Assembly (NCBI GenBank): GCA_044868105.1
Contig: JBIOWC010000196.1
Coordinates: 198-64,197 of the forward strand
Length of the DNA stretch: 64,000 nucleotides
Direction of reading: 5' to 3'
DNA from: Blastocatellia bacterium
Lineage (GTDB): Bacteria > Acidobacteriota > Blastocatellia > UBA7656
The notes under the pieces were generated by a model. It did no database searches and had not been told where the DNA came from. It saw nothing but the letters and a program-made list of their open reading frames with translations. Numbering within the stretch: position 1 is the first letter of the stretch; each line of letters begins with the position of its first letter. Of this stretch, positions 5,734-48,852 are shown in pieces. Both the position numbers and the translations under genes were made by a program.

Positions 5734-5769
5734 TGGGTCAGCTATTTCTGTTAGGGCAGAGTCAAACTC

Positions 5770-12191: not shown

Positions 12192-13307
12192 GTGATGAGC
12201 AACACCAACCCACCCAATCCGATCTTAGTTGAAATCCGGCGCGGGGCAATTGTTGAAGCCGTGCATCGCGGCGCCATTGTCGCGCTTGAACCTGACGGCA
12301 ACCTCATTGCGGCGCTTGGCAACATTGATTTAATGACTTCAACGCGCTCGGCAATTAAACCGATTCAGGCAATCCCTTTTATCACCAGCGGCGCGGCTGA
12401 CCGCTTCAACGTCACCGGACGTGAACTCGCTGTGGTTTGCGCTTCGCATGACGGCGAACCTTTTCACACCGAAACCGTCGCGTCCTTACTTGATAAAATC
12501 GGGCTGAATGAAAGCGATTTGCGATGTGGCGCGCATCCGCCCTATCACGAAGCAACCGCCAGGCAACTTGAGCGCGACGGCATAAAGTTCACCCAGCTTC
12601 ACAACAACTGTTCAGGCAAACACGCGGGAATGCTGGCAACCTGCGTACATCGCGGGTTATCTACGGATGATTACACGGCAAAAGAGCATTCCGTTCAGCA
12701 GGAAATCATTGCTATCTTCAAGCGCCTTGCGGGGCTGGATGAACCTATCGCCATCGCAGTTGACGGTTGCAGTGCGCCGACCTTCGGGGTGCCGCTTCGT
12801 TCACTCGCGCTCGCATTTGCGCGGCTCGTTGAAGCTTCGGCCAACCACAACCGCGTAGATGAAAGCGGCTCCGGTAGCCAGTTTCAAGTTGAGCACCTAT
12901 CGCCACAACTCGCCGAAACGGCGCGCCGTGTGATGTACGCCATTGCCGCCAGACGAATTGTGGCAGCGATAACCGCGCATCCTGAAATGGTCGCTGGCAG
13001 CACCCGGCTCGACACCGATTTAATGCGTGTGGCGCGCGGTTCATTGATTTGCAAAGTCGGCGCCGAGGCGGTCTATTGCCTAGGCGTTTTGCCCTGCGCA
13101 ACCTATCCGCGCGGCCTGGGCATTGCCATCAAGATGGATGACGGCGCCTATAGAGGGATGAATCCCACGATTATCGAAACCCTTGCGCAACTCGAGGTTT
13201 TCGACAAAGCGCAGCAAGCGGAATTAACTGGCTATCATCAACCAACGGTGACGAATCACCGCGGCTTGAGAGTCGGCGAGATTCGCGCGGTATTTGAATT
13301 GAGATAG
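12192..13307 (+). CDS. L-asparaginase II family protein (Asparaginase_II, PF06089-type)
   Basis: The NNCSGKHAGML motif and overall similarity to the Rhizobium-type asparaginase II fold. 371 aa. Confidence 0.7.
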   Translation: MMSNTNPPNPILVEIRRGAIVEAVHRGAIVALEPDGNLIAALGNIDLMTSTRSAIKPIQAIPFITSGAADRFNVTGRELAVVCASHDGEPFHTETVASLLDKIGLNESDLRCGAHPPYHEATARQLERDGIKFTQLHNNCSGKHAGMLATCVHRGLSTDDYTAKEHSVQQEIIAIFKRLAGLDEPIAIAVDGCSAPTFGVPLRSLALAFARLVEASANHNRVDESGSGSQFQVEHLSPQLAETARRVMYAIAARRIVAAITAHPEMVAGSTRLDTDLMRVARGSLICKVGAEAVYCLGVLPCATYPRGLGIAIKMDDGAYRGMNPTIIETLAQLEVFDKAQQAELTGYHQPTVTNHRGLRVGEIRAVFELR

Positions 13308-13447
13308 GGGATAGGATTTAGGACGTAGGGTTTGGAGTTAGGCATTGTATGTTGCCTTGCAACAGGCTCCAGAAGCCAATTACAAGGTAATAGTTTCGCA
13401 CTCTACATCCGGAATCCTACCTCCTAAATCCTAAATCCTAATTTCTG
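13308..13447. repeat. Palindromic intergenic element, copy A: inverted heptamer-repeat arms flanking a conserved core
   Basis: Left arm GATAGGA-TTTAGGA-CGTAGGG-TTTGGAG-TTAGG. Right arm CCTACCT-CCTAAAT-CCTAAAT-CCTAAT (reverse-complementary heptads). The core contains AACAGGCTCCAGAAGCCAATTAC...TAG...CTCTACATCC, which is shared with copy B. Confidence 0.7.
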
Positions 13448-14598: not shown

Positions 14599-15537
14599 TT
14601 GGAATTTCCCCTCTGGTTCACAACGGCATTGCCGGAAATTAAACAATCAAGTTTCCCGGCCTCCGCGCTCACCTTCTATAATGCTGGGGTGAGCCATAAA
14701 CACAAGCCTGAGCATTTAGTGCAGTTCAACGTCATCAACCCGAAATCCGTGCTCAATCCTTCGAGTATGGGTGGCTTTACGCTGAACCCATACGTCAGTT
14801 GCACAGTTGGCTGTTCCTACTGTTATGTACCGCATATGCGCCACAAACAATTGGAGACCAGAAAATGGGGGGCCTATGTTGACATTAAAGAGGGCGCTGT
14901 GGAATTGCTCGACCGTCAACTTGCGCGGTTGCGAAAGCCGACGACGATCTTTATGTCAACGGCGACCGATCCGTATCAGCCGGTTGAAGCGCGCTACGAG
15001 ATTACGCGGCGCATGCTGGAAGTCTTCCGACGCCATCCGCAACATGCTTTGTATATTCTTACTAAACAAGCGCTGGTTGAGCGCGACGTTGATCTGCTCA
15101 GACAACTGCCGCGCGTCGCCGTCGGCATGAGTATAGCGGTTATGGATGATCGCCTGGCACAACTGATTGAGCCGTGGGCTCCGATTACCAGTGACCGCCT
15201 TGCGCTCATCAAACGTTTATCCGGGCAGGGCATTCCAACTTATCTGCTCTGGGCACCTGCGATTGTACCCGTCGCCCTGAGCGAGACGTTTATTCGCTCG
15301 GCGGTTGAAGCAATTGTTGCAAGTGGCGCCGGCGCTTTGTCCATCGACACCATGAATTATCGTTCCAGCCAATCAGCGGGGCTGTTTCGCAGGTTGAGAC
15401 GTGAGGGACATGTGGCCGCCAACAAAGCCCAGACCCTCAGGATTCGCGCTGAGGCTGATCGCCGGGAGTTGGGTCGCCGGCTTGCGCTGGTTGAACCTGC
15501 GACAATCGAGGAAATGGCTCCCTTGTTGCCTTTCTAA
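14599..15537 (+). CDS. Radical SAM protein, SPL/DNA-photolyase-like (SplB COG1533 type); the true start is probably internal
   Basis: The LNPYVSCTVGCSYCYVP motif gives the CX3CX2C radical-SAM cluster in the SplB-like context (NPY.GC...C.YCY). An alternative start lies at about 14767. Confidence 0.6.
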   Translation: MEFPLWFTTALPEIKQSSFPASALTFYNAGVSHKHKPEHLVQFNVINPKSVLNPSSMGGFTLNPYVSCTVGCSYCYVPHMRHKQLETRKWGAYVDIKEGAVELLDRQLARLRKPTTIFMSTATDPYQPVEARYEITRRMLEVFRRHPQHALYILTKQALVERDVDLLRQLPRVAVGMSIAVMDDRLAQLIEPWAPITSDRLALIKRLSGQGIPTYLLWAPAIVPVALSETFIRSAVEAIVASGAGALSIDTMNYRSSQSAGLFRRLRREGHVAANKAQTLRIRAEADRRELGRRLALVEPATIEEMAPLLPF

Positions 15538-15644
15538 AGGCTCAGGTTCATCAGGTGAGCTGATTATTTGAAATTTAATAGTATTCTAATTTTGTGTTGC
15601 CGAATCGATTTGCTGTTCTATAAAGTTTTAGGACAAATCAAGGT

Positions 15645-15989
15645 ATGGGAGAAAATTCGACAAATCTTGCTGCCGAGCTTACCGTCTTCCACCAAGACGA
15701 AGGCGACTACACGAGCCGCACCATATACATCTCCGTCGATGGCAAGAAAATCGCCAGCGTAAAATCGGGAGCTTCCGTCACCGTGGAGATCACGCCGGGT
15801 AAGCACATTCTTCAAGCGGACAATACTTTCACGAAGAAGCGAGAACCCTTTGAAGCGCATCCCGGTGAAAAACTGCGTTATGTGACCCGCAATCGTATCG
15901 GCTTCGGCTCATCGCTAATCAGCATTCTCGGCGCGGGACCGGTCTACCTCATTTTGCAGAGAGAAGCCGAAGCGGCAAGCTCAAATTAG
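15645..15989 (+). CDS. Hypothetical protein
   Basis: 114-aa ORF in an AT-rich patch. It has a C-terminal hydrophobic segment (GFGSSLISILGAGPVYLIL) and no recognisable motif. Confidence 0.3.
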   Translation: MGENSTNLAAELTVFHQDEGDYTSRTIYISVDGKKIASVKSGASVTVEITPGKHILQADNTFTKKREPFEAHPGEKLRYVTRNRIGFGSSLISILGAGPVYLILQREAEAASSN

Positions 15990-16043
15990 CACCACACAGG
16001 ATTAGGACACTAACCTAATGCTACTTGCCCGGCTCAAGGCACT

Positions 16044-16874
16044 TTGATAGAACAGGATTATTTTGAGCTTATTTTTATTATGTTTGTTTTAGGTAAGGGA
16101 AAATCCACAGGTAAAATCGTCAATAGTCTGAGTGATGATGGAGTCATCATAAGCACGACACATTATTCGGTTGAAGAGTGTAACCAGGGACTGCATTACC
16201 ATGAAAATCCGCACCTCTGTTTCCTATTTCAAGGCGAAGATATAGAGAGCCGCAATAATCTTTCCTATCGGCGAAAAACCGGAGACATTTACTTTTATTA
16301 TGCCGGAGAGACGCACGCTTCGATTTCCCGTACAGGTATTTCAAAAAATACCAATATTGAATTTGGAGAAACTTTTCTAAAGAAATATGAGGTTTCAGAA
16401 TCCCAGATTGCCAGGGCGATAAAAGACAATTTAGATGCCAGGTTCCTCATCTTAAAAATGCAGCAGGAAATGTTAATTGGCGACCGTTGCAGCCGCCTCA
16501 CGATTCAGATGCTTTTACTCAATTTAATTCACGATGCAAATCCCACCTCTAACCAATCGCCTCCGAAATGGGTACAACGATTAGCTGAGTTGCTCGATGA
16601 GAAATGGAACCAACAAGTCACCTTACATGAACTTTCAATGGCGACCGAAGTGCACCCGGTAACCATTTCAAAATACTTCAGAAAGTACTTTTCCTGTACC
16701 TTAGGAGAATACCTGCGAAAACTAAAGATTGATAAAAGTATTTCATTAATTAAAAACACACGTATGTCACTTACCGAAATTGCTCTTTATTGCGGCTTTG
16801 CCGACCAAAGCCATTTCACCAGAAATTTCAAGCACCTGACCGGCTTTTCGCCCAAAGAATTCCGCAATATCTAA
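16044..16874 (+). CDS. AraC/XylS-family transcriptional regulator
   Basis: C-terminal double HTH (LTEIALYCGFADQSHFTRNFKHLTGFSPKEFR) and an N-terminal cupin-like sensing domain. The gene is conspicuously AT-rich (about 40% GC) against a roughly 58% background. Confidence 0.85.
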   Translation: MIEQDYFELIFIMFVLGKGKSTGKIVNSLSDDGVIISTTHYSVEECNQGLHYHENPHLCFLFQGEDIESRNNLSYRRKTGDIYFYYAGETHASISRTGISKNTNIEFGETFLKKYEVSESQIARAIKDNLDARFLILKMQQEMLIGDRCSRLTIQMLLLNLIHDANPTSNQSPPKWVQRLAELLDEKWNQQVTLHELSMATEVHPVTISKYFRKYFSCTLGEYLRKLKIDKSISLIKNTRMSLTEIALYCGFADQSHFTRNFKHLTGFSPKEFRNI

Positions 16875-17025
16875 ATTCCGCAGCTCGCTAATCTCATTCT
16901 ATTTTTTCCCAGTTCCTGCCCTATACTTGCTCTCAAAGCCTGGCCTGATAATGGGCTGCTGCCGTTCTGCAGCGCAGGTTACCATTGCAGAACTGGCTCA
17001 TAAAATATTTTGGGAAGCAAGTTGT

Positions 17026-18489
17026 ATGCATATCAATCTTATTCGGTCATATCGTTTTTTCACGCTAATGGCGTTGTGCTTGCTCAGCGTGCAGGGTAGC
17101 GCGGCACAGGCTCCAACCGCCAAACAAGTTGCCGCAAAAGTTGACGAGTATATGAATGCCGCCGTCAAATTCGACCAGTTCAGTGGTGCGGTTCTCATCG
17201 CAAGGGACGGCGCGCCCATCGTAAGCCGTAGCTATGGGATGGCAAACTACGAATTGAAGGTGCCGAACACGCCGAAGACGGTTTTCGAAACCGGTTCGGT
17301 TACCAAGCAATTTACCGCGATGGCGATTATGCAATTGCAGGAACGCGGGAAATTGAATGTCAATGATTCGATTTGCAAATATCTGGAAGACTGTCCGGCG
17401 GCGTGGCAATCCGTGACGATTCGTCATCTTTTGACGCACACTTCCGGCATTATGAACTATTCAAGTCTTCCCGATTGGGACGATAAAATTTCCCTGCTGC
17501 CTTACACTCGTGCAGGATTCGTGAAAGTGTTCCGCGATATACCGCTCGAATTTGTGCCGGGCGAGAAATTCAAATACAGCAATTCCGGATATTATCTGCT
17601 CGGCTTGATTATTGAACGCGCATCGGGCAAGTCATATCGGGAATTTTTGAGCGAGAACATTTTCGTGCCCTTAGGGATGAAAAGCTCGAGCTACAACGAC
17701 CCGCCTGCGCTCATCCCGAATCGCGCCACTGGTTACTATTGGGAATTAAATTCATTTATCAGCGCACCAAATGAAAATTTGGCGCTTGGCTTTGCAGCAA
17801 GTGGCATCTATACGACGATTGAAGATCTACTGCTATGGGACAAGGCGCTTTATACCGAAAAACTCGTCTCTCGTAAATCGCTGGATGAAATCTTTACCCC
17901 ATTCCTTGAGGAATACGGTTATGGCTGGCTAATCGGCAAAAAGTTTGACCGGCAGATGATAAGTCATAGCGGCAGACACAATGGTTTTAAAGCCTACATC
18001 GCCCGCTTTCCCGCCGCGCGGGTGACGGTCATCGTTTTGAGCAATAGCGACAGAACGTCTGCGACCAAGGCGGCAACTAATCTCGCCGCAATTGCCTTCG
18101 GCGCGCCCTACAAGCTGCCCATACTGCAGGGTTCGGATATGCTATCAGCAGCCATCGCGGAAAAAGGTATCGAGGCTGCTATGCGGCAATACCGTGAATT
18201 AAAACGCTCCCAACCAGAAAAGTATAATTTTAATGAACCGGAGCGGGCACTAAATGATTTAGGCTATGCTTTGCTCGGACGCCGAAAGGTGAAAGAGGCA
18301 ATCGAAGTTTTCAAATTGAATGTCGAGATGTTTCGGCAATCGGCCAACGCCTATGACAGTTTAGGCGAAGCTTATATGTTGAGTGGGAACAAAGAGCTGG
18401 CCATCGAGAATTATAAAAAATCGCTGGAACTTGACCCGCAAAATATCAATGCCGGCGATATGCTAAAGAAGTTACGAGAAAGCAAATAA
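17026..18489 (+). CDS. Secreted beta-lactamase-family serine hydrolase with C-terminal TPR repeats
   Basis: Signal peptide (MHINLIRSYRFFTLMALCLLSVQGSAAQA). The S-x-x-K active site is GSVTKQF, with a YSN-like motif (KYSNSGYYLL). The C-terminus has TPR-like repeats (ALNDLGYALLGRRKVKEAIEVFKLNVEMFRQSANAYDSLGEAYM...). Confidence 0.8.
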   Translation: MHINLIRSYRFFTLMALCLLSVQGSAAQAPTAKQVAAKVDEYMNAAVKFDQFSGAVLIARDGAPIVSRSYGMANYELKVPNTPKTVFETGSVTKQFTAMAIMQLQERGKLNVNDSICKYLEDCPAAWQSVTIRHLLTHTSGIMNYSSLPDWDDKISLLPYTRAGFVKVFRDIPLEFVPGEKFKYSNSGYYLLGLIIERASGKSYREFLSENIFVPLGMKSSSYNDPPALIPNRATGYYWELNSFISAPNENLALGFAASGIYTTIEDLLLWDKALYTEKLVSRKSLDEIFTPFLEEYGYGWLIGKKFDRQMISHSGRHNGFKAYIARFPAARVTVIVLSNSDRTSATKAATNLAAIAFGAPYKLPILQGSDMLSAAIAEKGIEAAMRQYRELKRSQPEKYNFNEPERALNDLGYALLGRRKVKEAIEVFKLNVEMFRQSANAYDSLGEAYMLSGNKELAIENYKKSLELDPQNINAGDMLKKLRESK

Positions 18490-29709: not shown

Positions 29710-29728
29710 TTCAGTGTTCCTCTCAAAT

Positions 29729-29918
29729 CAGGAATTAGGAGTTAGGATGTAGGAATTAGGATATAGGAGTTGGGGAGGTAGAGGATTTAATGTTTCACCC
29801 GCCTGTTGACTTGAAACAGGCTCCAGTAGCCAGTTACGAGACCGTAGCAGTTCTACTTCATCCCTTCCGTATGCTGTATCCTAATTCCCATTTCCTAATT
29901 CCTATATCCTACATCCTA
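29729..29918. repeat. Palindromic intergenic element, copy B (same family as 13308-13447)
   Basis: Left arm AATTAGG-AGTTAGG-ATGTAGG-AATTAGG-ATATAGG-AGTTGGG... Right arm CCTAATT-CCCATTT-CCTAATT-CCTATAT-CCTACAT-CCTAG. The core AACAGGCTCCAGTAGCCAGTTAC...TAG...TTCTACTTCATCC is about 75% identical to copy A. Confidence 0.7.
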
Positions 29919-30857
29919 GCTAGCGGTTTCAAGTCGGCGACGTTGAAATTCGTCAAAGGTCACGGCCAGCACGATGACGGCGCCGATGATGACCTGTTGC
30001 GTAAACGACGAAATGCCGAGCAGATTCGCGCCGTTTGCCAGTACGCCCATAATCAACGAGCCGATAATTGTACCAATAACGGTTCCTTGCCCGCCGGCAA
30101 GTGAGCCGCCCCCGATGACGACGGCGGCGATAACGCGCAGTTCATAACCCTCGCCCGCGGTTGGTTGCCCGGTTACGAGCCGCGCCGATTCAATAGCTCC
30201 TGCCAAACCGGCAAGCGCCCCGAGAATGACGTAGAACATAATTTGATAACGCGAAACGCGAACCCCTGCGTAACGCGCCGCTTCGACATTACTGCCGATG
30301 GCATAACAATAACGACCCGCCTGGGTGCGGGTAAGCAAAAAATGGATGACCAGCGCGACCACCAGAACAATCAGTAGCGGCACAGGAAACACGCCAAACA
30401 GGTTGCCTTCGGCGAGATAACCGAAACTGTTTGGCAAACCGACAACCGCCGTGCCATCGGTGATGAGTAAAGCGACGCCGCGATAAATTCCCATCGCCCC
30501 CAGCGTGACAATAAACGGCGGGATTTTGAGCATCGCCACCGCCGTTCCGTTAATGATTCCAAACATCGCGCCCGCCGCTATACAGACCAGGATTCCCAAA
30601 AGCACCGGAGCGCCAGCGACCATCGAGAGCGCGCCAAGCACAGCGGTCAACGCCATCATCGAACCGACCGACAGGTCTATGCCGCCTGCGACCATCACCA
30701 TCGTCATGCCGATTGCCATGGTGGTAATCACTGCCGTCTGCCGCGCGACCCCGGCAAGGTTACCGGCGGAAAGAAATTTTGGCTCAAGCACGGCAATCAG
30801 AGTGCAGAGCGCCAGCAAGCTGACAAAAGGTAGAAAGCGTTTAATCCAATCCGACAT
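29916..30857 (-). CDS. Sugar ABC transporter permease (RbsC/branched monosaccharide type)
   Basis: 313 aa with about 10 TM helices. The conserved loop IPPFIVTLGAMGIYRGVALLITDG is typical of the ribose/xylose permease family. Confidence 0.85.
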   Translation of the reverse strand: MSDWIKRFLPFVSLLALCTLIAVLEPKFLSAGNLAGVARQTAVITTMAIGMTMVMVAGGIDLSVGSMMALTAVLGALSMVAGAPVLLGILVCIAAGAMFGIINGTAVAMLKIPPFIVTLGAMGIYRGVALLITDGTAVVGLPNSFGYLAEGNLFGVFPVPLLIVLVVALVIHFLLTRTQAGRYCYAIGSNVEAARYAGVRVSRYQIMFYVILGALAGLAGAIESARLVTGQPTAGEGYELRVIAAVVIGGGSLAGGQGTVIGTIIGSLIMGVLANGANLLGISSFTQQVIIGAVIVLAVTFDEFQRRRLETAS

Positions 30858-32561: not shown

Positions 32562-32597
32562 GGATGATCTTTAAAAATCAAAAAATATTTTCTAAAA

Positions 32598-32782
32598 GCC
32601 CCGAAGGGGCGAGATTCAATAGCTTAGGGCAACGCCCGGAGAAATGCAGGTCTCGGTTCTCAAGCCCTGAAAGGGCGACATTAGCTACCCCGATTTATTT
32701 CGCCCTTTCAGGGCTTTTCGTTTTCATGCCCGACATTTCCCGGCGCGATACGCCGGGCTATTGAATTGCGCCCTTTCAGGGC
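32598..32782. repeat. Cluster of REP-like 13-nt palindromic hairpins (GCCCTGAAAGGGC and variants) in both orientations
   Basis: GCCCCGAAGGGGC (32598-32610), GCCCTGAAAGGGC (32664-32676), GCCCTTTCAGGGC (32702-32714), GCCCTTTCAGGGC (32770-32782), plus CCCGGCG-CGATA-CGCCGGG (32739-32757). All lie in the 308-bp spacer between the SUKH-like gene and the ABC ATPase start. Confidence 0.65.
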
Positions 32783-32869
32783 TTCGCTCAACTTTATAAA
32801 ACCGAACAAGGCTACTTACTTTCGGTGATTGAACATTCGCAATGCAGCGACCGGATTCATCATATGCGA

Positions 32870-45065: not shown

Positions 45066-45172
45066 TTTGTGCCGTTTGTGAAATTTGTGAGCTGGGTGAG
45101 ACATCTGCATTGGGAAAGCGAATCTCTCGCGATTGCAAAAATGGTTCTCACAAATTTCACAAACGGCACAAA
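45066..45172. repeat. 26-bp perfect inverted repeat with a 55-nt spacer, between the TonB-dependent receptor 3' end and the lactonase/sugar-acid operon 5' end
   Basis: TTTGTGCCGTTTGTGAAATTTGTGAG (45066-45091) and CTCACAAATTTCACAAACGGCACAAA (45147-45172), followed on + by a T-rich run (GATTTTTG). Confidence 0.7.
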
Positions 45173-45228: not shown

Positions 45229-48200
45229 TCAAAAAACAATCTTCGCTCCGATTTGTACATTGCGCGGCAGGTTGTTCTGGCTCGTCACCTTGCCGAAGTT
45301 TGAACTCGTCGGGTCGGTATTGGGGTCGCCGAACTGCGGGTGATTGAAGGCATTGAGGAATTCGCCGCGCAGTTGAAATTTCACCTTTTCGGTTATCGAA
45401 AAGTTCTTGATAACCGAAAGGTCCCACAGATTGAGCGGTTGACGACGGAAGCCGGTCAGGCGCGACGGGAAGACGCGCACATTATTGACCAGTCTGATGC
45501 GTTGGTCGGCGCGCTGTTTCGCAGGGTCTACGACCCCATTGGTCTGCACCGCCGCATCGCTGAAATAGAACCCGCTGGTATCAAAGGTTCCCTCTACGGT
45601 GTTGCCGGTGATGTCGGCGCGCAGCTTACTGGGGTCGCCATTGAAATAGACATTGCGGTCGCTGAGGTCAATGGGGCGACCGCTCTGCCATTGATAAATG
45701 CCTTGCACCTGCCAGCCGCCGATGAAGGCATCAACCAGGCCGTTCCAATCGGCGCCCAACTTGCGCCCCCGGCCAAACGGCAATTCCCAGATGCCGCTCA
45801 CCACGACGCGATGCGGAATGTCATCCGAGCCGATGCGCCGCTCGTACGTCGTATCCGACTCGTTCAGGAAGGTCACCTCTTCAATCACCTTCGACCAGGT
45901 GTAGTTTCCAAGCAACGTAAAGCCACCGGTGAAGCGCCGTTCGATGCGAAATTGCGCGCCGTGATAGATGGCCGTGCCATCGTCACGCCGCGTCCGTATG
46001 CGACCGAACTGCGGGAAGGGGCGCAGCAGTTGTTGCCGTTGGATGGTTGAGCCGTTGAAGTTGGTGCCTGGCAGTAACCCTTGGAAGGGGTTTTTGACGT
46101 TGGCGGTCAGGGCGTTATTGGTCGCATCATCGCGCACCGAACTGGTTGACAGATATTGGCGCGGGATGGCGTTTGTCACGATGTTGTCATTCGAGGCATT
46201 GCCGGTCGTGATGGCGTAAGCGCGGTTGCCGATATAGGCCGCCTCGACCAGCCATTCGCCCGGCAGTTCACGTTGAAGGCTCAATTCCCAGCGCGCCGTC
46301 TGCGCGTTATCTCTATCGGTCGGGTAAAAGTCAAGGTCCCGGCCGAGAAAGGTCGCCAGCCCCAGGGTCGCGCCCGGCGGCTCGGCAACGCCCGTCGGGA
46401 AGGGGTTGAAGAGATTGCCGCAGCTCGCGCAAGCCGGCGCAAACGTCAGCCCGGCATTCAAGGTCGGCACAATGTTGGTCGCTTGCGAGAAACCCGTCTG
46501 CATGACGCCGTCAATGACGAAAGGCGCCGTGTAGATGCCGAAGCCGCCGCGCGCGACCGTCTTATCATTTACCTGATAAGCAAAACCGACGCGCGGTTGG
46601 AAATTGTTCTTGTCGGCCACCCAGAACCCCCGATTGCGTTTGTCGGCAAAAAGCAAGCCGCCTTTCACACTGAAACCGCTCACCGGAATTTCGGGAATCG
46701 GGTTTGCCGCGTAGGCAGCTTTTGCCGCCGTTTCTATGGGGCTGCTGGCGGTTTCATCAAAACCGCGAAGGTTGCGGTCGAATCGTTCTGTGGTCGCGCC
46801 TTCGACCTCATAGCGCAGACCGAGATTCAAGGTCAGTTTGCGACTGACCTTCCAATCATCGTGAAAGAAGAGGCCGCTATAGAGGGTTTGATTCGAGCGC
46901 GCCGCGTTGCGGTCAATAAATCCGCCGGTCGGCAGTCCCAGTAAGAAGGAGGCGAATTCCTGACCGATGGCCGCAGCAGTTGAGTTATCGAGCGGGCCGC
47001 GCGTGAAGTTGGTGCTGAAGTCGTAGCGTCCGGCCGCGTGAGCCGCGGGACTGCTGTTTTCCCTGTAGGAGCGGAAATCGTAGCCCATCTTGAACGAGTG
47101 GCTGGCGACAATTTTAGTCAGCGTCGGTTGCACCGAGTAGATATTGTGCGTGCGGATGTCGCCGCGACTGTCGCCGATGTTGGAAAAGCTGCCCGCAGGA
47201 AATTCAAAACGCGGCAGATATTTTCCGGTGCCGAAAAAGCCTACCGATTGCGGCGAGAAACCGAGACTCGCAGGCTCGAAGGTGCCTTCGTGCTGACGGA
47301 CGTTGGTTTCGAGAAACCGCGAAAAGCCGAGGCGAAAATCTAAAATCATGGTCGGCGAAAAGGTGTACACGTGGTCGTAGCTGAAGCCATCGTTTTTACG
47401 CGTCAGGAAATTGCCCGTCGATAGCAGGCCATTGACCTCGCCCGACCAGTTGCTGCGCGCCTCTAAGCGATTGTTATGCGTATAGCGGAAATAAAATTTC
47501 TGTTTGTCGCTGACCGTCTGGTCAAAGCGATAACTTTCGGAATGGAAGCGGTCGGTGCGCGGTTGTCCGCTGATGAAATTGTTGCGCCCCTGTGAATCGC
47601 CCGGCTGGTTGGGCAACGGGTAATATTTCAGATAAGCCAGGGCAATCGGGCTCAGCAGGTTTTGCGGAATCTTATTGCCGGGGAAAGGGTCGCGGCGTAT
47701 GCGTGAGCCTTCTGCCCGGGCGGTGAACGGGTTATAAATCTGGAAACTGGCGTTAACGGCGAGCAGCGCCGACAGGTCGCCGTTGCGCTCGGCTTCGGTC
47801 GGAACCGTAAACAGCGCCGGCTCCGGGAAGACATCTTTCAGGCGCTCATAGGCAAAGAAGAAGAAACTGCGGTCGCGCCCGTTATAGATTTTCGGAATAT
47901 AGATGGGACCGCCGAGGGTCGCGCCGTAGCGGTTGTAACGCAGCGGGTCGCGGTCGGCTTTGCCATCCTTGTCCTTGTCGCGCGCCGGGTTGGCCGCCAG
48001 ATTGGTGCGATTGATAAAGAAGTCATTGGCCGAGAGCACATCATTGCGGACAAATTCATAGACCGTGCCGTGCAGACTGTTGGTGCCGCTGCGCAAGGCG
48101 ACATTGACGGCCGCGCCCGCCCCGTGTCCTTGCTGGGCATCGAAACTCGCGGTCTCGACTTTGAACTCCTGCACGGCGTCGGCCGGCGGAATAAAGGCAA

Positions 48201-48852
48201 CGCGATTGCCGCCGCTGCCGTTATCGTCGGTGTTGGGCACGCCGTCGAGCGTGAATTCGTGACCGCCGACTCGCGGCACCCCGTCCGAAATGAAATCCGA
48301 ACTCCCGTTATTATCGAAGGGTCGCGAAAATTTGAGGTCGCCAACGTAGCCGATGCCCGGCGCCAGCCTGGTCAGCGTGAACGGGTTGCCGTCCGAAAGC
48401 GGCAATTCCGAGATGCGCCGCCGGTCAATGACCTGCCCTGCTGATGCCGAGCTGGATTCGAGAAGCGGCGCCGACGCGACGACGCTGACGGTCTGCTCGA
48501 CGCCGCCCACTTCAAGCGCCAGGTCGAGGGTTAATTTATCGCCGACGCGCACCTCGATGCCCTGGTTGACGAATTTCTTAAATCCTTGCGCCTCGACCGT
48601 CACCGAATACTTGCCCGGCACCAGATAAAATACCGAATAGTTGCCGTCCCCGTCCGAGTTGACCGCGGTCGAGGTATTCATGTTGATATTGGTAATCGTG
48701 ATGCGCGCGCCGGCCACAACGGCGCCGGTGGCATCGCTGACGCGCCCGGTAATTGAGCCGCGCGATTCCTGAGCGGCAACGGTCGCGAGCAGTAGTTGCG
48801 AACCGAGCGCGACCGCAAGCAAGCAGCTAATGGTTTGATGTCTCCTTTTCAT
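45229..48852 (-). CDS. TonB-dependent outer-membrane receptor with an N-terminal carboxypeptidase-regulatory-like (CarbopepD_reg) domain
   Basis: Signal peptide, then GSITGRVSDATGAVVAGARITITN...GDGNYSVFYLVPGKYSVTVEAQGFK (the CarbopepD_reg fold). A plug domain and a long beta-barrel follow, ending in a C-terminal aromatic residue (..IGAKIVF). 1207 aa. Confidence 0.9.
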   Translation of the reverse strand: MKRRHQTISCLLAVALGSQLLLATVAAQESRGSITGRVSDATGAVVAGARITITNINMNTSTAVNSDGDGNYSVFYLVPGKYSVTVEAQGFKKFVNQGIEVRVGDKLTLDLALEVGGVEQTVSVVASAPLLESSSASAGQVIDRRRISELPLSDGNPFTLTRLAPGIGYVGDLKFSRPFDNNGSSDFISDGVPRVGGHEFTLDGVPNTDDNGSGGNRVAFIPPADAVQEFKVETASFDAQQGHGAGAAVNVALRSGTNSLHGTVYEFVRNDVLSANDFFINRTNLAANPARDKDKDGKADRDPLRYNRYGATLGGPIYIPKIYNGRDRSFFFFAYERLKDVFPEPALFTVPTEAERNGDLSALLAVNASFQIYNPFTARAEGSRIRRDPFPGNKIPQNLLSPIALAYLKYYPLPNQPGDSQGRNNFISGQPRTDRFHSESYRFDQTVSDKQKFYFRYTHNNRLEARSNWSGEVNGLLSTGNFLTRKNDGFSYDHVYTFSPTMILDFRLGFSRFLETNVRQHEGTFEPASLGFSPQSVGFFGTGKYLPRFEFPAGSFSNIGDSRGDIRTHNIYSVQPTLTKIVASHSFKMGYDFRSYRENSSPAAHAAGRYDFSTNFTRGPLDNSTAAAIGQEFASFLLGLPTGGFIDRNAARSNQTLYSGLFFHDDWKVSRKLTLNLGLRYEVEGATTERFDRNLRGFDETASSPIETAAKAAYAANPIPEIPVSGFSVKGGLLFADKRNRGFWVADKNNFQPRVGFAYQVNDKTVARGGFGIYTAPFVIDGVMQTGFSQATNIVPTLNAGLTFAPACASCGNLFNPFPTGVAEPPGATLGLATFLGRDLDFYPTDRDNAQTARWELSLQRELPGEWLVEAAYIGNRAYAITTGNASNDNIVTNAIPRQYLSTSSVRDDATNNALTANVKNPFQGLLPGTNFNGSTIQRQQLLRPFPQFGRIRTRRDDGTAIYHGAQFRIERRFTGGFTLLGNYTWSKVIEEVTFLNESDTTYERRIGSDDIPHRVVVSGIWELPFGRGRKLGADWNGLVDAFIGGWQVQGIYQWQSGRPIDLSDRNVYFNGDPSKLRADITGNTVEGTFDTSGFYFSDAAVQTNGVVDPAKQRADQRIRLVNNVRVFPSRLTGFRRQPLNLWDLSVIKNFSITEKVKFQLRGEFLNAFNHPQFGDPNTDPTSSNFGKVTSQNNLPRNVQIGAKIVF

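Follow-up and report, generated by a model that had tools for sequence, protein, structure and literature searches.

Long palindromes of paired heptamer arrays with an exchangeable centre behind stop codons in a Blastocatellia genome

The window, i.e. the whole stretch of 64 kb of DNA analysed here, contains two long imperfect palindromes with arms of tandem heptamers of the TTAGGAN type. Copy A (13305-13442, + strand) fills the spacer between the genes of an asparaginase II (12192-13307) and a class-V aminotransferase (start codon 13454), both on the + strand. Copy B (29728-29918) lies between the genes of an ABC permease (29916-30857) and an FAA-hydrolase (start 29709), both on the - strand, and an earlier note on this DNA had rightly placed both copies between same-strand genes. 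In copy A the TAG of the first heptamer doubles as the stop codon of the asparaginase II gene (13305-13307); in copy B it doubles as that of the permease gene (cta at 29916-29918, - strand). On the other side the 3' arm of copy A stops 11 nt short of the aminotransferase start codon, and the purine-rich arm of copy B is found 19 nt upstream of that of the FAA-hydrolase.

The 5' arm of copy A (13305-13346, + strand; TAGGGGA TAGGATT TAGGACG TAGGGTT TGGAGTT AGG) is followed by a type 1 core block of 47 nt (13349-13395, + strand), which holds the 23-mer AACAGGCTCCAGAAGCCAATTAC at 13361-13383 with a GGCT/AGCC mini-hairpin. Next come an inner right segment TTCGCACTCTACATCCGGAAT (13396-13416, + strand), which pairs loosely with an inner left segment, and the 3' arm (13417-13442, + strand; CCTACCT CCTAAAT CCTAAAT CCTAAT), the reverse complement of the 5'-arm heptamers. 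The inner right segment is similar to the TTCAT/CATTC inner arms of the elements at three of the fetched loci (L011, L136 and L008). Copy B consists of a purine-rich arm on the + strand (29728-29778; CAGGAAT TAGGAGT TAGGATG TAGGAAT TAGGATA TAGGAGT TGGGGAG), a type 1 core block (29803-29849, + strand, antisense to the flanking - strand genes) with the 23-mer AACAGGCTCCAGTAGCCAGTTAC at 29815-29837, and a pyrimidine-rich arm (29873-29918, + strand; TATCCTA ATTCCCA TTTCCTA ATTCCTA TATCCTA CATCCTA).

Tandem Repeats Finder places period-7 arrays of 4-6 copies at 13413-13441, 29726-29771 and 29877-29918 of the window. Such arrays of more than about two units occur at these two loci only in the 64 kb, the other two rows being 2.1-copy runs of 15 nt. 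AGG(A) is present in all arm units of both copies. Most units (TAGGATT, TAGGAAT etc.) contain only GG instead of G3+, and in this they differ from the Xanthomonas arrays discussed below: the four-tract G-quadruplex stressed for the Xanthomonas/Nostoc subtype is not applicable, so that the hairpins are not filed under a G4 subtype and fit with the AGG/CAGG units of the Geobacter type.

The predicted folds of both copies are stable, with a minimum free energy (MFE) of -62 kcal/mol for copy A (z = -7.2) and -78 kcal/mol for copy B (z = -7.1), and none of 200 shuffled sequences was as stable. The arms are complementary at 82% over 28-39 nt. Pairing runs through the heptamer consensus (5/7 positions) in multiple registers, several of which, shifted by 7 nt, pair almost equally well. 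The proposal that the whole asparaginase-aminotransferase spacer is one structured palindromic element is supported. Two arrays that are built on one consensus will pair automatically. MFE values and G-U counts gave equal average stability of sense and antisense folds, with no consistent bias, so that nothing points to selection at the RNA level rather than at the DNA level. Five elements of type 2, compared with RNAalifold, have a common architecture with weak covariation (6 of 41 pairs compensatory, covariation term +4.2).

An intra-operon terminator, one of the roles suggested earlier, can be set aside in its canonical form, because there is no U-tract behind the 3' arm of the stem, and a consensus terminator scan found none formed by the arms. 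The sequences that follow the stem are AATTTCTGACG in copy A and TGATTTGAGAGG in copy B (sense strand). No Rfam family reached its gathering score for copies A and B or for the elements of loci L004, L005 and L008. The best match, MIR2118 with 26.7 bits against a gathering score of 85, is a generic long-hairpin match spanning all of copy B; at permissive thresholds there was one further match at chance level, and nothing for the core.

By sequence comparison, the centre at both window loci is a module of approximately 40-47 nt (CTTGAAACAGGCTCCAGNAGCCNNTTAC...) in the lineage of the window. Copies A and B are identical at 35 of 47 core positions and at 21 positions of the 23-mer, and overall they have 76% of columns in common. 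With 3 mismatches allowed, the core pattern occurs in exactly two places in the 64 kb, none being expected from 100 shuffles. A covariance model of the core, applied to the window, scores copy A with 61.8 bits and copy B with 60.4 bits, the next match reaching 11 bits. This confirms the earlier observation of a second, related copy at 29729-29918 with about 75% of the core.

Further copies of the core were found elsewhere, giving five armed copies (A, B and, from soil metagenomes, L004, L005 and L008) and one bare copy without arms in a Blastocatellia MAG (L002), which matches the L008 core at 29 of 33 positions as counted by eye. The core occurs at four or more unrelated loci in several genomes. 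Its 23-mer is nearly invariant among copies that are strongly diverged elsewhere, and takes the form of an imperfect palindrome AACAGGCT-N5-AGCCWGTT that is perfect in L002.

The core scans of genome contigs and metagenomes required an exact match of 19-20 nt and returned only a handful of type 1 cores: one relevant match (L002) and two chance matches in coding regions of Clostridia among the genome contigs, three true relatives and four chance matches among the metagenomes. A scan of viral contigs found no core. With BLAST, copy B had no match among phages, and among plasmids its arms only were matched, by heptamer arrays in Nostoc, Kovacikia and Sulfurovum. The covariance model of the core detected no further copies in the window or in approximately 1.3 Mb of fetched loci, except for a weak match to a bare core in L011 (2678-2722, E = 0.45) inside a 120-bp spacer that corresponds to 36 bp in the window. 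A close-relative locus orthologous to L005 (L140) is without the element.

The core is oriented oppositely relative to transcription in the two copies, since the genes flanking copy A are on the + strand and those flanking copy B on the - strand. The earlier note makes no mention of this. A structured cis-regulatory RNA or a small RNA gene that functions through the conserved core would explain why this core is conserved across loci and contains small hairpins (GGCT/AGCC, and TTAC.../...GTAA variants). We nevertheless consider such an RNA extremely unlikely: the orientation relative to transcription is inconsistent, the inner hairpins lack a common register across the six sequences, the Rfam searches returned nothing for the core even at permissive thresholds, and no promoter or terminator was found. 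The sRNA or attenuator of the earlier note, taken as strand-specific, is likewise not supported, given both core orientations to transcription and sense and antisense folds without consistent bias. Most likely the conserved core is a passenger or recognition module and not a strand-specific RNA.

At one orthologous locus (L004 and L008) the flanks are colinear with 85-87% identity, and the centre is inverted with 81% identity. This raises the question of an invertible switch (inverton), with the arms as recombination sites and the core as switched cargo, e.g. a promoter. The inverted centre between colinear outer arms is what such a switch would produce, as is the opposite orientation of copies A and B relative to their operons; inverted repeats do surround a segment found in both orientations. 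The 13-15% difference between the flanks however means that L004 and L008 come from different organisms and do not represent two states of one population. Moreover, inverted repeats of 40-50 bp can invert without a dedicated system, the core has no sigma-70-like promoter on either strand, and no invertase or recombinase is encoded nearby in the window. We therefore regard a switch as very improbable. ECF-type (TGAAAC...CGT) and sigma-54 readings of the core, made by eye, were rejected: their spacing is wrong, and conservation is highest in what would have to be the spacer. Another rejected candidate is an ORF of 13 codons in copy A, which is without conservation in copy B or L008.

Relatives of both window loci were reached through protein homologues. 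Down to a protein identity of 75%, all related genomes that were examined have a heptamer hairpin at the permease/FAA-hydrolase junction, and its heptamer type and centre turn over completely between relatives. Spacers of 162-174 bp with hairpin z values from -5.3 to -7.5 were found in L135, L136 and L137, and arms of the type (CAGTAGG)n with an MFE of -89.7 in L143-145, at 75% identity. Like the window elements, the hairpins of L011 and L135-137 start at a stop codon between same-strand genes. The outer arms consist of TTAGGAN in the window, AGGAGTC in L004/L005/L008 and TCAGAAT in L135/L136; no unit is common to orthologous sites, and the stems are variable microsatellite arrays. The persistence of the hairpin while its sequence was completely replaced speaks for selection, or else for some active mechanism that regenerates it. 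The earlier note had named as evidence against its own reading a lack of further copies together with a loss of arm pairing in homologous spacers of relatives. As described, copies were found in three soil metagenomic loci and, without arms, in the Blastocatellia MAG, and related genomes keep the hairpins in homologous spacers, so that neither outcome applies.

The asparaginase/aminotransferase junction behaves differently from one relative to the next. The window, L011 and L136 have the hairpin; in L012 and L141/L142 the two genes overlap by 4 nt, and in L013/L014 a 22-bp spacer retains GAATTC and 1.5 heptamers. The aminotransferases of L014 (no hairpin) and L136 (hairpin) are 98.4% identical. 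CWGAATTC, which is palindromic and part of the arm repeat, occurs at both ends of the filled L136 site and once in the empty L014 site. The element at this junction is hence dispensable in close relatives, and any function is not an essential one.

Presence and absence of the hairpin beside a 98.4% identical protein, with CWGAATTC doubled at the filled site, resemble the trace of a non-autonomous mobile element (MITE- or REPIN-like), in which the whole palindrome or its core of approximately 40 nt would have been moved in trans and would serve no host function. The same core at four or more unrelated loci of several genomes, its two orientations, the bare module in L002, and elements of types 1 and 2 with common inner arms at different loci fit this reading too, and there are precedents: IS1397 inserts into the loops of REP elements, and the Nostoc SDR elements reportedly sit inside heptamer repeats. 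A candidate mover would be a transposase encoded elsewhere, for instance of the RAYT/Y1 kind or one directed at the apices of hairpins. However, GAATTC is self-complementary and lies within the arm repeat, so that hairpin collapse between direct copies explains the CWGAATTC pattern equally well, and the "empty" sites of L013/L014 still keep 1.5 arm heptamers. The outer arms vary by locus and lineage, so there is no fixed terminal inverted repeat (TIR), and the permease/FAA-hydrolase junction stays occupied through complete sequence turnover. The Pfam search revealed no transposase, recombinase, RAYT or Y1 domain among the approximately 40 ORFs of the window, and the flanks fetched for the Blastocatellia loci contained no transposase either. 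The copy density in the sampled DNA is low as well; there are two inverted pairs in the 64-kb window and two in approximately 32 kb of GCA_040754075.1. On balance we consider a mobile element of this kind unlikely.

As to the MITE-like unit of the earlier note, Correia, Nezha and RUP elements do resemble the window elements in their length of 100-200 bp, terminal inverted repeats, non-coding intergenic nature and presence/absence polymorphism among strains. They differ in that here no defined TIR consensus, unambiguous target-site duplication (TSD) or parent IS was found. The arms are microsatellites specific to their locus, their outer parts vary from copy to copy instead of forming TIRs common to all, and there is no clean TIR/TSD boundary. 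The ORFs of the window include no transposase, and a MITE-like classification is not supported.

Hairpins of this general kind are widespread, and the statement that the element matches nothing known did not survive a comparison with the literature. Inverted pairs of tandem heptanucleotides (GGGAATC) lie beside stop codons in Xanthomonas, and pairs with other heptamers occur in Geobacter metallireducens (PMC4692102, PMC2700814). The Xanthomonas arrays are intergenic, on average 28 nt past the upstream ORF, mostly between co-directional ORFs and under-represented between divergent genes; they are transcribed, with 70-75 inverted pairs and about 185 arrays per genome (PMC4692102). In the fetched DNA (1.4 Mb, 271 arrays) we counted 26 pairs in the order AGG..CCT and 0 in the order CCT..AGG. 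Metagenomic contigs contain many inverted heptamer pairs, in all of which the purine-rich arm is the 5' one, and the hairpins usually begin within approximately 10 nt of the stop of a long ORF. Their heptamers include TCAGRAK, CAGTAGG and GGGAATC, as compared with TTAGGAN in the window, and arrays of the TTAGGAG type stand at stop codons in Sulfurovum, Nostoc and Kovacikia. With this genome, the known range of inverted pairs at stop codons covers Gammaproteobacteria, Desulfobacterota, Acidobacteriota and unidentified organisms from metagenomes; cyanobacteria and Campylobacterota have yielded single arrays of that type.

Such hairpins could also be a neutral by-product, i.e. slippage-prone heptanucleotide microsatellites at stops that become paired when template switching occurs at a fold-back, and that are retained because they do no harm. 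This would be in agreement with the extensive turnover of length and sequence, the frequent collapse, the absence of strand bias and the weak covariation, and the fixed 26:0 polarity could reflect a directional mutational mechanism. No regulatory role was found for the Xanthomonas arrays, and heptamers are the over-represented size of simple sequence repeats (SSR) in bacteria (PMC4692102). Against this, a long near-perfect palindrome is as a rule unstable in bacteria, but the same junction holds one in five lineages down to 75% protein identity; the 23-mer is nearly invariant amid strong divergence, and both the placement at stop codons and the under-representation between divergent genes point to constraint. 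We judge a purely neutral origin rather unlikely.

Among the known systems the GGGAATC/(GGGANTN)n arrays of Xanthomonas campestris and X. axonopodis (Rehm et al. 2015) come with tandem 7-nt units and a conserved RGGA core on opposite strands, in convergent order and near the stop between co-directional ORFs, and their length and sequence vary among related species while the site is kept, all as in the window elements; the GGGGA(C/T)T arrays of Nostoc PCC 7120 are grouped with them (PMC4692102). The hairpins described here likewise have tandem 7-nt RGGA- or TCAGRAK-like units in convergent, stem-forming arrays close to the stop of co-directional genes. They differ from the Xanthomonas type in their host, a soil acidobacterium, in a conserved, exchangeable centre of 40-60 nt and in the low copy number in the sampled 64 kb. 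In Geobacter metallireducens eight pairs of MTYCTGA x5 sites occur, e.g. between proB and proA, under the name "class 3 putative global regulator binding sites" (Aklujkar et al. 2009, PMC2700814). MTYCTGA, taken from the published consensus, is the complement of the TCAGRAK arms in L011, L135, L136, L004, L005 and L008, and like the window elements these sites are opposite-strand pairs inside operons. They were read as putative DNA sites of an IHF/HU-type protein, and no conserved centre, inversion or analysis of orthologous sites was reported (PMC2700814).

The TAACTGA repeats of Beggiatoaceae, cyanobacteria and Bacteroidetes, for which a post-transcriptional role was proposed (MacGregor 2015, PMC4679880), are also intergenic heptamer arrays that abut the boundaries of coding regions in several phyla. 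In contrast to the window elements they are direct repeats (one inverted case in 170 sets) upstream of start codons, and their heptamer is unrelated (PMC4679880). The window module may also be set beside the SDR elements of Nostoc, which belong to another phylum, have other sequences and measure 21-27 nt, as against a module of approximately 40 nt at the apex of an inverted pair. In 2008 Elhai et al. reportedly described cyanobacterial STRR heptamers as intergenic and these SDR elements of Nostoc punctiforme as small conserved modules that lie, in either orientation, within heptamer arrays or palindromes of many loci.

Another reading is a multi-site binding platform for a protein. At the DNA level this would be a nucleoid or "global regulator" protein of the IHF/HU type, as put forward for the Geobacter pairs; at the RNA level a CsrA-type protein or the ribosome would recognise the repeated AGGA/AGGAG motif, which is Shine-Dalgarno-like and could be hidden or exposed depending on its pairing with the CUCCU-rich arm. 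Such a platform would agree with the 7-nt units, repeated to either side of the centre with AGGA invariant, and with the annotation of the Geobacter pairs as regulator sites (PMC2700814). The imperfect palindrome of the 23-mer, perfect in L002, is typical of a dimer binding site, and the polarity, we infer, keeps the Shine-Dalgarno-like arm away from the downstream start codon. On the other hand, no candidate protein was identified, the heptamer differs at orthologous sites (TTAGGAN, TCAGRAK, CAGTAGG), which is hard to fit to one specific DNA-binding protein, and a spacing of 7 nt does not phase the sites on one face of the helix. We regard a binding platform as quite unlikely.

A parallel is also offered by the REP/BIME/REPIN family. 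In E. coli, REP/BIME elements stabilise mRNA within operons and have species-specific sequences at shared sites; REP elements affect the stability of the upstream mRNA and translation termination at the RNA level. Like them, the window hairpins are extragenic palindromes that follow stop codons within operons or at operon ends, with species-specific sequence at partly conserved positions (concerted evolution). REPs are nevertheless units of 20-40 nt with a fixed sequence, a conserved GTAG, hundreds of copies and a tie to RAYT, whereas the window stems are microsatellite arrays without a fixed unit and do not form a short fixed-family palindrome with a GTAG-type tetranucleotide.

Local alignment scores support concerted evolution in the hairpins themselves. 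Copies A and B of the window score 45 against each other, compared to 15-22 for their orthologues; the two elements of L136 score 70, compared to 46-52 to the orthologues in GCA_040754075.1 (L011, L137). Elements are thus closer within one genome than to their orthologues, which is indicative of concerted evolution. The near-identical pair at the permease/FAA-hydrolase junction of L135 and L136 scores 160, and type 2 centres are common to both junctions and three genomes. Each window copy belongs to a kind of long imperfect palindrome that had been noticed before and is functionally unexplained. What is new compared to the Xanthomonas and Geobacter hairpins is a conserved middle module of approximately 40-47 bases that has been swapped in, in either orientation. 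We read the AACAGGCTCCAG core as a lineage-specific module that replaced the hairpin centre at both window loci. Arms and core have not moved as one fixed unit: the arms are locus- or lineage-specific and the core is an exchangeable centre.

At slightly less than even confidence, we tentatively favour a REP-like stem-loop between cistrons that is transcribed together with them and evolves through slippage and through recombination mediated by its arms. The arms would grow and shrink, and would stay homogeneous, by slippage during replication of the 7-nt repeats and by template switching from arm to arm. Since arms of different loci resemble each other and are inverted, they could support ectopic recombination or gene conversion, by which a centre could be copied from one hairpin to another in either orientation, or be inverted or collapsed; no transposase would be needed for the centre to spread. 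We infer gene conversion as the spreading mechanism from the similarity pattern. The element would be transcribed with the operon and act at the RNA level in the manner of REP/BIME, an analogy that draws on what is established for E. coli. A very stable stem-loop just past the stop codon might block 3'-5' exonucleases, or alternatively cause a partial stop or a decoupling of transcription and translation, and the genes on the two sides of the hairpin would then be expressed at different levels.

The hairpins offer three handles on the wider class: a hairpin kept at an orthologous junction, the strict 5'-purine/3'-pyrimidine polarity, and a centre whose exchange and inversion record recombination among hairpins. 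Should the RNA-level role be true, they would represent in several under-studied phyla what REP elements are elsewhere, and would matter for operon annotation and the prediction of expression. If it is not, they would provide a clean system for studying birth, homogenisation and collapse of palindromic microsatellites.

Any mechanism has to explain the polarity of 26:0. A more speculative reading, which we consider improbable in its two parts taken together, treats the module of approximately 40 nt, CTTGAAACAGGCTCCAGNAGCCNNTTAC(N8-10)GG, as a new ultra-small mobile DNA at the hairpin apex and, separately, the polarity as an enzymatic footprint. The hairpin, through its single-stranded apex or its inverted arms, may be the target of such a module, which would enter in either orientation. 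On both strands the purine-rich, TTAGG-like strand always runs 5'->3' toward the centre, much as in two telomere-type arrays fused head to head, and a dedicated directional enzymatic process, not ordinary slippage, could build heptamer arrays at DNA hairpins or breaks. Unpaired arrays have a weak orientation bias relative to stop codons (29 vs 15), a count that is confounded by stop codons within the repeats.

The spacer between the L-asparaginase II gene and the class-V aminotransferase gene on the + strand (junction A) is filled by a palindrome at 13305-13442 (copy A), whose left arm, as read from the sequence, consists of 4-5 TAGGNNN-type heptamers, and whose right arm (CCTACCT CCTAAAT CCTAAAT CCTAAT) carries their reverse complements. 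The ~60-nt centre between them contains AACAGGCTCCAGAAGCCAATTAC. Copy B (29728-29918) separates a gene for an ABC permease from an FAA-hydrolase-family gene, both on the - strand (junction B), and follows the same plan with longer arms. Both copies are identical in 76% of the aligned columns, and in the core block (type 1 core) they agree at 35 out of 47 positions. Within the 64-kb window Tandem Repeats Finder reported period-7 arrays exceeding about two units at these two loci only, the other two period-7 rows being 15-nt runs of 2.1 copies; the core pattern with up to three mismatches matched only copies A and B in the window, where chance would be expected to give none. Each copy forms a single long hairpin (z = -7.2 and -7.1 compared to dinucleotide shuffles). 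The earlier note's description of 13305-13442 as inverted heptamer repeats around a conserved core is accurate, and the element is real.

The arms are complementary to 74-84%, and this in several registers offset by 7 nt, which indicates that pairing arises from the shared heptamer consensus and not from position-by-position complementarity. Covariation was weak in an alignment of five elements with the different centre found in relatives (type 2). Neither strand was consistently more stable upon folding, the elements matched no Rfam family, the cores contained no sigma-70-type promoter, and no stem-plus-U-tract terminator built from the arms was found. In both copies the gene that is transcribed into the element has the TAG of the first heptamer as its stop codon. 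As the core has the same direction on the + strand in both copies, it is sense in copy A and antisense in copy B.

Junction A differs among the fetched loci of relatives. The two genes overlap by 4 nt in L141/L142 and in L012 (aminotransferase identity to the window 76% and 84%, respectively); a 22-bp spacer is present in L013 (88%), keeping GAATTC and 1.5 heptamers, and in L014 (86%), keeping GAATTC; and a heptamer hairpin of 160-170 bp with a type 2 centre occurs in L011 (81%) and L136 (86%). The type 2 centre, as seen in L011, is unlike the one of the window and made of GATGAAC-type inner heptamers. The aminotransferases of L136 (filled) and L014 (empty) are 98.4% identical, so that the element at junction A is polymorphic at about the species level. 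Such presence and absence speaks for one of the main rival explanations, a MITE- or REPIN-like element mobilised in trans, and against it stands that none of the about 40 window ORFs, which belong to ordinary metabolism and transport, encodes a transposase, a recombinase or a Y1 domain; we regard this explanation as unlikely.

Beyond the junction itself, the aminotransferase gene is directly followed by an AhpC/1-Cys peroxiredoxin gene in L011, L013 and L136, and radical-SAM, AraC-type regulator and beta-lactamase/TPR genes intervene in the window (14599-18489). The radical-SAM gene 3' of the aminotransferase gene encodes 632 aa in L012 (2611-4509) and 312 aa in the window (14599-15537); given this difference in length an intein insertion is possible in L012, where a faint intein-splicing match was obtained.

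At junction B the palindrome has been retained across deep divergence, as a hairpin starting at the stop codon is present in every relative examined. L135, L136 and L137 possess TCAGRAK-like arms and type 2 centres (z -5.3 to -7.5). The more distant L143-145, with 75% protein identity, possess (CAGTAGG)n/(CCTACTG)n arms (MFE -89.7 kcal/mol; L143 9748-9976, L144 3497-3725, L145 2313-2541) around a centre of ~150 nt that is related to neither type 1 nor type 2. The AACAGGCTCCAG core is absent from the junction B hairpins of L135-137 and L143-145. It follows that the hairpin is old and has persisted while its sequence turned over completely; the type 1 core came later and replaced the centre at both junctions in the lineage of the window. 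The turnover speaks for, and the persistence against, another main rival explanation, that the palindrome is a neutral mutational by-product, which we judge to be rather improbable. A further array, (AGTGAAT)n, starts in L143 (10910-10938) where the FAA-hydrolase gene has its stop codon.

The module of ~40-47 nt that has replaced the centre is also found on its own and in either orientation. An exact core scan over one genome per species returned one match in a relevant context, the Blastocatellia MAG locus L002, in which the core lies without heptamer arms in a spacer of 45 bp, flanked by two genes of the same strand, and agrees with L008 in 29 out of 33 nt (counted by eye). The metagenome scan returned three true relatives, the soil contigs L004, L005 and L008, with the core as in the window and arms of other heptamers (AGGAGTC/AGGAGAC). 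L004 and L008 are orthologous loci with colinear flanks (85-87% identity) and colinear outer arms, whereas the inner ~80-116 nt are inverted between them (81% identity). The type 1 element of L008 and the type 2 element L136-A have their inner arms (GCAGAAG ... TTTYCATTCTG) in common, so that only ~40 nt are specific to type 1, and this is the part standing alone in L002. With the covariance model of the 47-nt block (R1), neither the window nor about 1.3 Mb of other fetched DNA yielded additional copies, except for a weak core-like sequence, GCCTTGAAAGAGGCTCCTGTAG, in L011 (2678-2722, - strand; E = 0.45). It may represent a decayed bare module; the spacer holding it measures 120 bp, and its counterpart is 36 bp long in the window (5734-5769) and 14 bp long in L141.

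Elements of one genome are more alike than orthologues. The local alignment score is 45 between the two window copies versus 15-22 for orthologues, and 70 between the two L136 elements versus 46-52 for the orthologues from GCA_040754075.1 (L011, L137); a score of 160 is reached by L135/L136, a near-identical pair. Judged by these scores, the elements evolve in concert within genomes.

That the element is a heptamer-microsatellite palindrome placed at a stop codon, and a member of a widespread class, is well supported. A scan for three TYAGGAN units gave at least 120 stretches in viral-labelled metagenome contigs, a Sulfurovum replicon contains (TTAGGAG)n arrays with the stop codon supplied by the first unit, and Nostoc and Kovacikia plasmids carry related arrays. 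In all fetched DNA (1.4 Mb, 271 arrays) an AGG-array was followed by a CCT-array within 250 nt in 26 neighbourhoods, e.g. L015 8971-9047, L017 3397-3476, L121 7073-7183 and L130 9438-9506, and the reverse order occurred 0 times. Since an inverted repeat is identical on both strands, this means that the purine-rich arm is always 5' and the CCT-type arm 3'. These hairpins have short, unrelated loops and usually start about 10 nt or less from the point where a long ORF stops. In Sulfurovum mangrovi (NZ_CP087125.1, L138 1478-1545) an array of perfect TTAGGAG units, about nine and a half in number, begins within the stop codon of the gene for the DNA polymerase III delta subunit, upstream of rpsF-ssb-rpsR and without an inverted partner. 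Unpaired intergenic (AGGCAAA)n/(TTTGCCT)n-type arrays in related Blastocatellia contigs (L141 6288-6326, L142 4258-4295, L143 3689-3739, L137 3287-3322) indicate that several heptamer families coexist in this clade.

In Xanthomonas, about 185 (GGGANTN)n arrays were reported per genome, 70-75 of them convergent inverted pairs (Rehm et al. 2015, PMC4692102). They are intergenic, on average 28 nt past the upstream ORF and mostly between co-directional ORFs, are transcribed, and vary in length among species at conserved sites, with no role identified (PMC4692102). Geobacter metallireducens possesses eight pairs of five tandem heptanucleotides with the consensus MTYCTGA (Aklujkar et al. 2009, PMC2700814), the complement of TCAGRAK, on opposite strands, e.g. 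between proB and proA (PMC2700814). These pairs were proposed as binding sites of an unknown global regulator (Aklujkar et al. 2009, PMC2700814); that our elements are a protein-binding platform we consider very improbable. TAACTGA direct repeats were described upstream of start codons (MacGregor 2015, PMC4679880). The Xanthomonas and Geobacter reports mean that the arm architecture was already known, though unexplained, and the earlier note's proposal of an element of unknown kind was too strong, as the class is known. A limited literature search, in which absence is not proof, returned no report of such arms in Acidobacteriota or of a conserved exchangeable centre. New within the known class are the host phylum, the conserved centre and the evolutionary behavior; if new biology emerges, it could be from the polarity rule and the invading centre.

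Mechanistically, slippage together with template switching from arm to arm could keep the arms repetitive and complementary, and recombination via similar inverted arms might allow centres to spread, flip and collapse. At the operon junction the transcribed stem-loop may then act similarly to REP/BIME elements, affecting the stability of the mRNA, the read-through of transcription or the termination of translation. This function of the hairpin at the RNA level, suggested by analogy, is the weakest step, and the whole package of classification, slippage and recombination, and REP/BIME-like RNA role is held tentatively, at a little short of an even chance.

Other repeats occur in the window. A 308-bp spacer between two - strand genes contains a cluster of Acido-Lenti-1 RNA motifs (32597-32783): one match above the gathering score (32739-32783, + strand, 41.5 bits), in keeping with the Blastocatellia-type Acidobacteriota host indicated by homologues of the window's proteins, and three sub-threshold copies (32597-32638, -; 32690-32715, +; 32663-32713, -), jointly forming nested inverted repeats of AAGCCCTGAAAGGGCG hairpins. 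At 45066-45172, downstream of the gene for a 1207-aa outer-membrane beta-barrel protein (45229-48852, - strand) and about 57 nt from its stop, a perfect 26-nt inverted repeat (TTTGTGCCGTTTGTGAAATTTGTGAG / CTCACAAATTTCACAAACGGCACAAA) with a 55-nt spacer has an internal 9-nt periodicity. A 47-nt inverted repeat (2449-2597, 81% complementary) surrounds three tandem 26-nt units (2494-2570) in the long spacer from a WD40-repeat gene to a PMT_2 glycosyltransferase gene. In the related contig L141 (18525-21125), a PRTase-CE gene precedes two small ORFs, with a gene for a reverse transcriptase (RVT_1) after them, an arrangement resembling a retron- or defence-type cassette.
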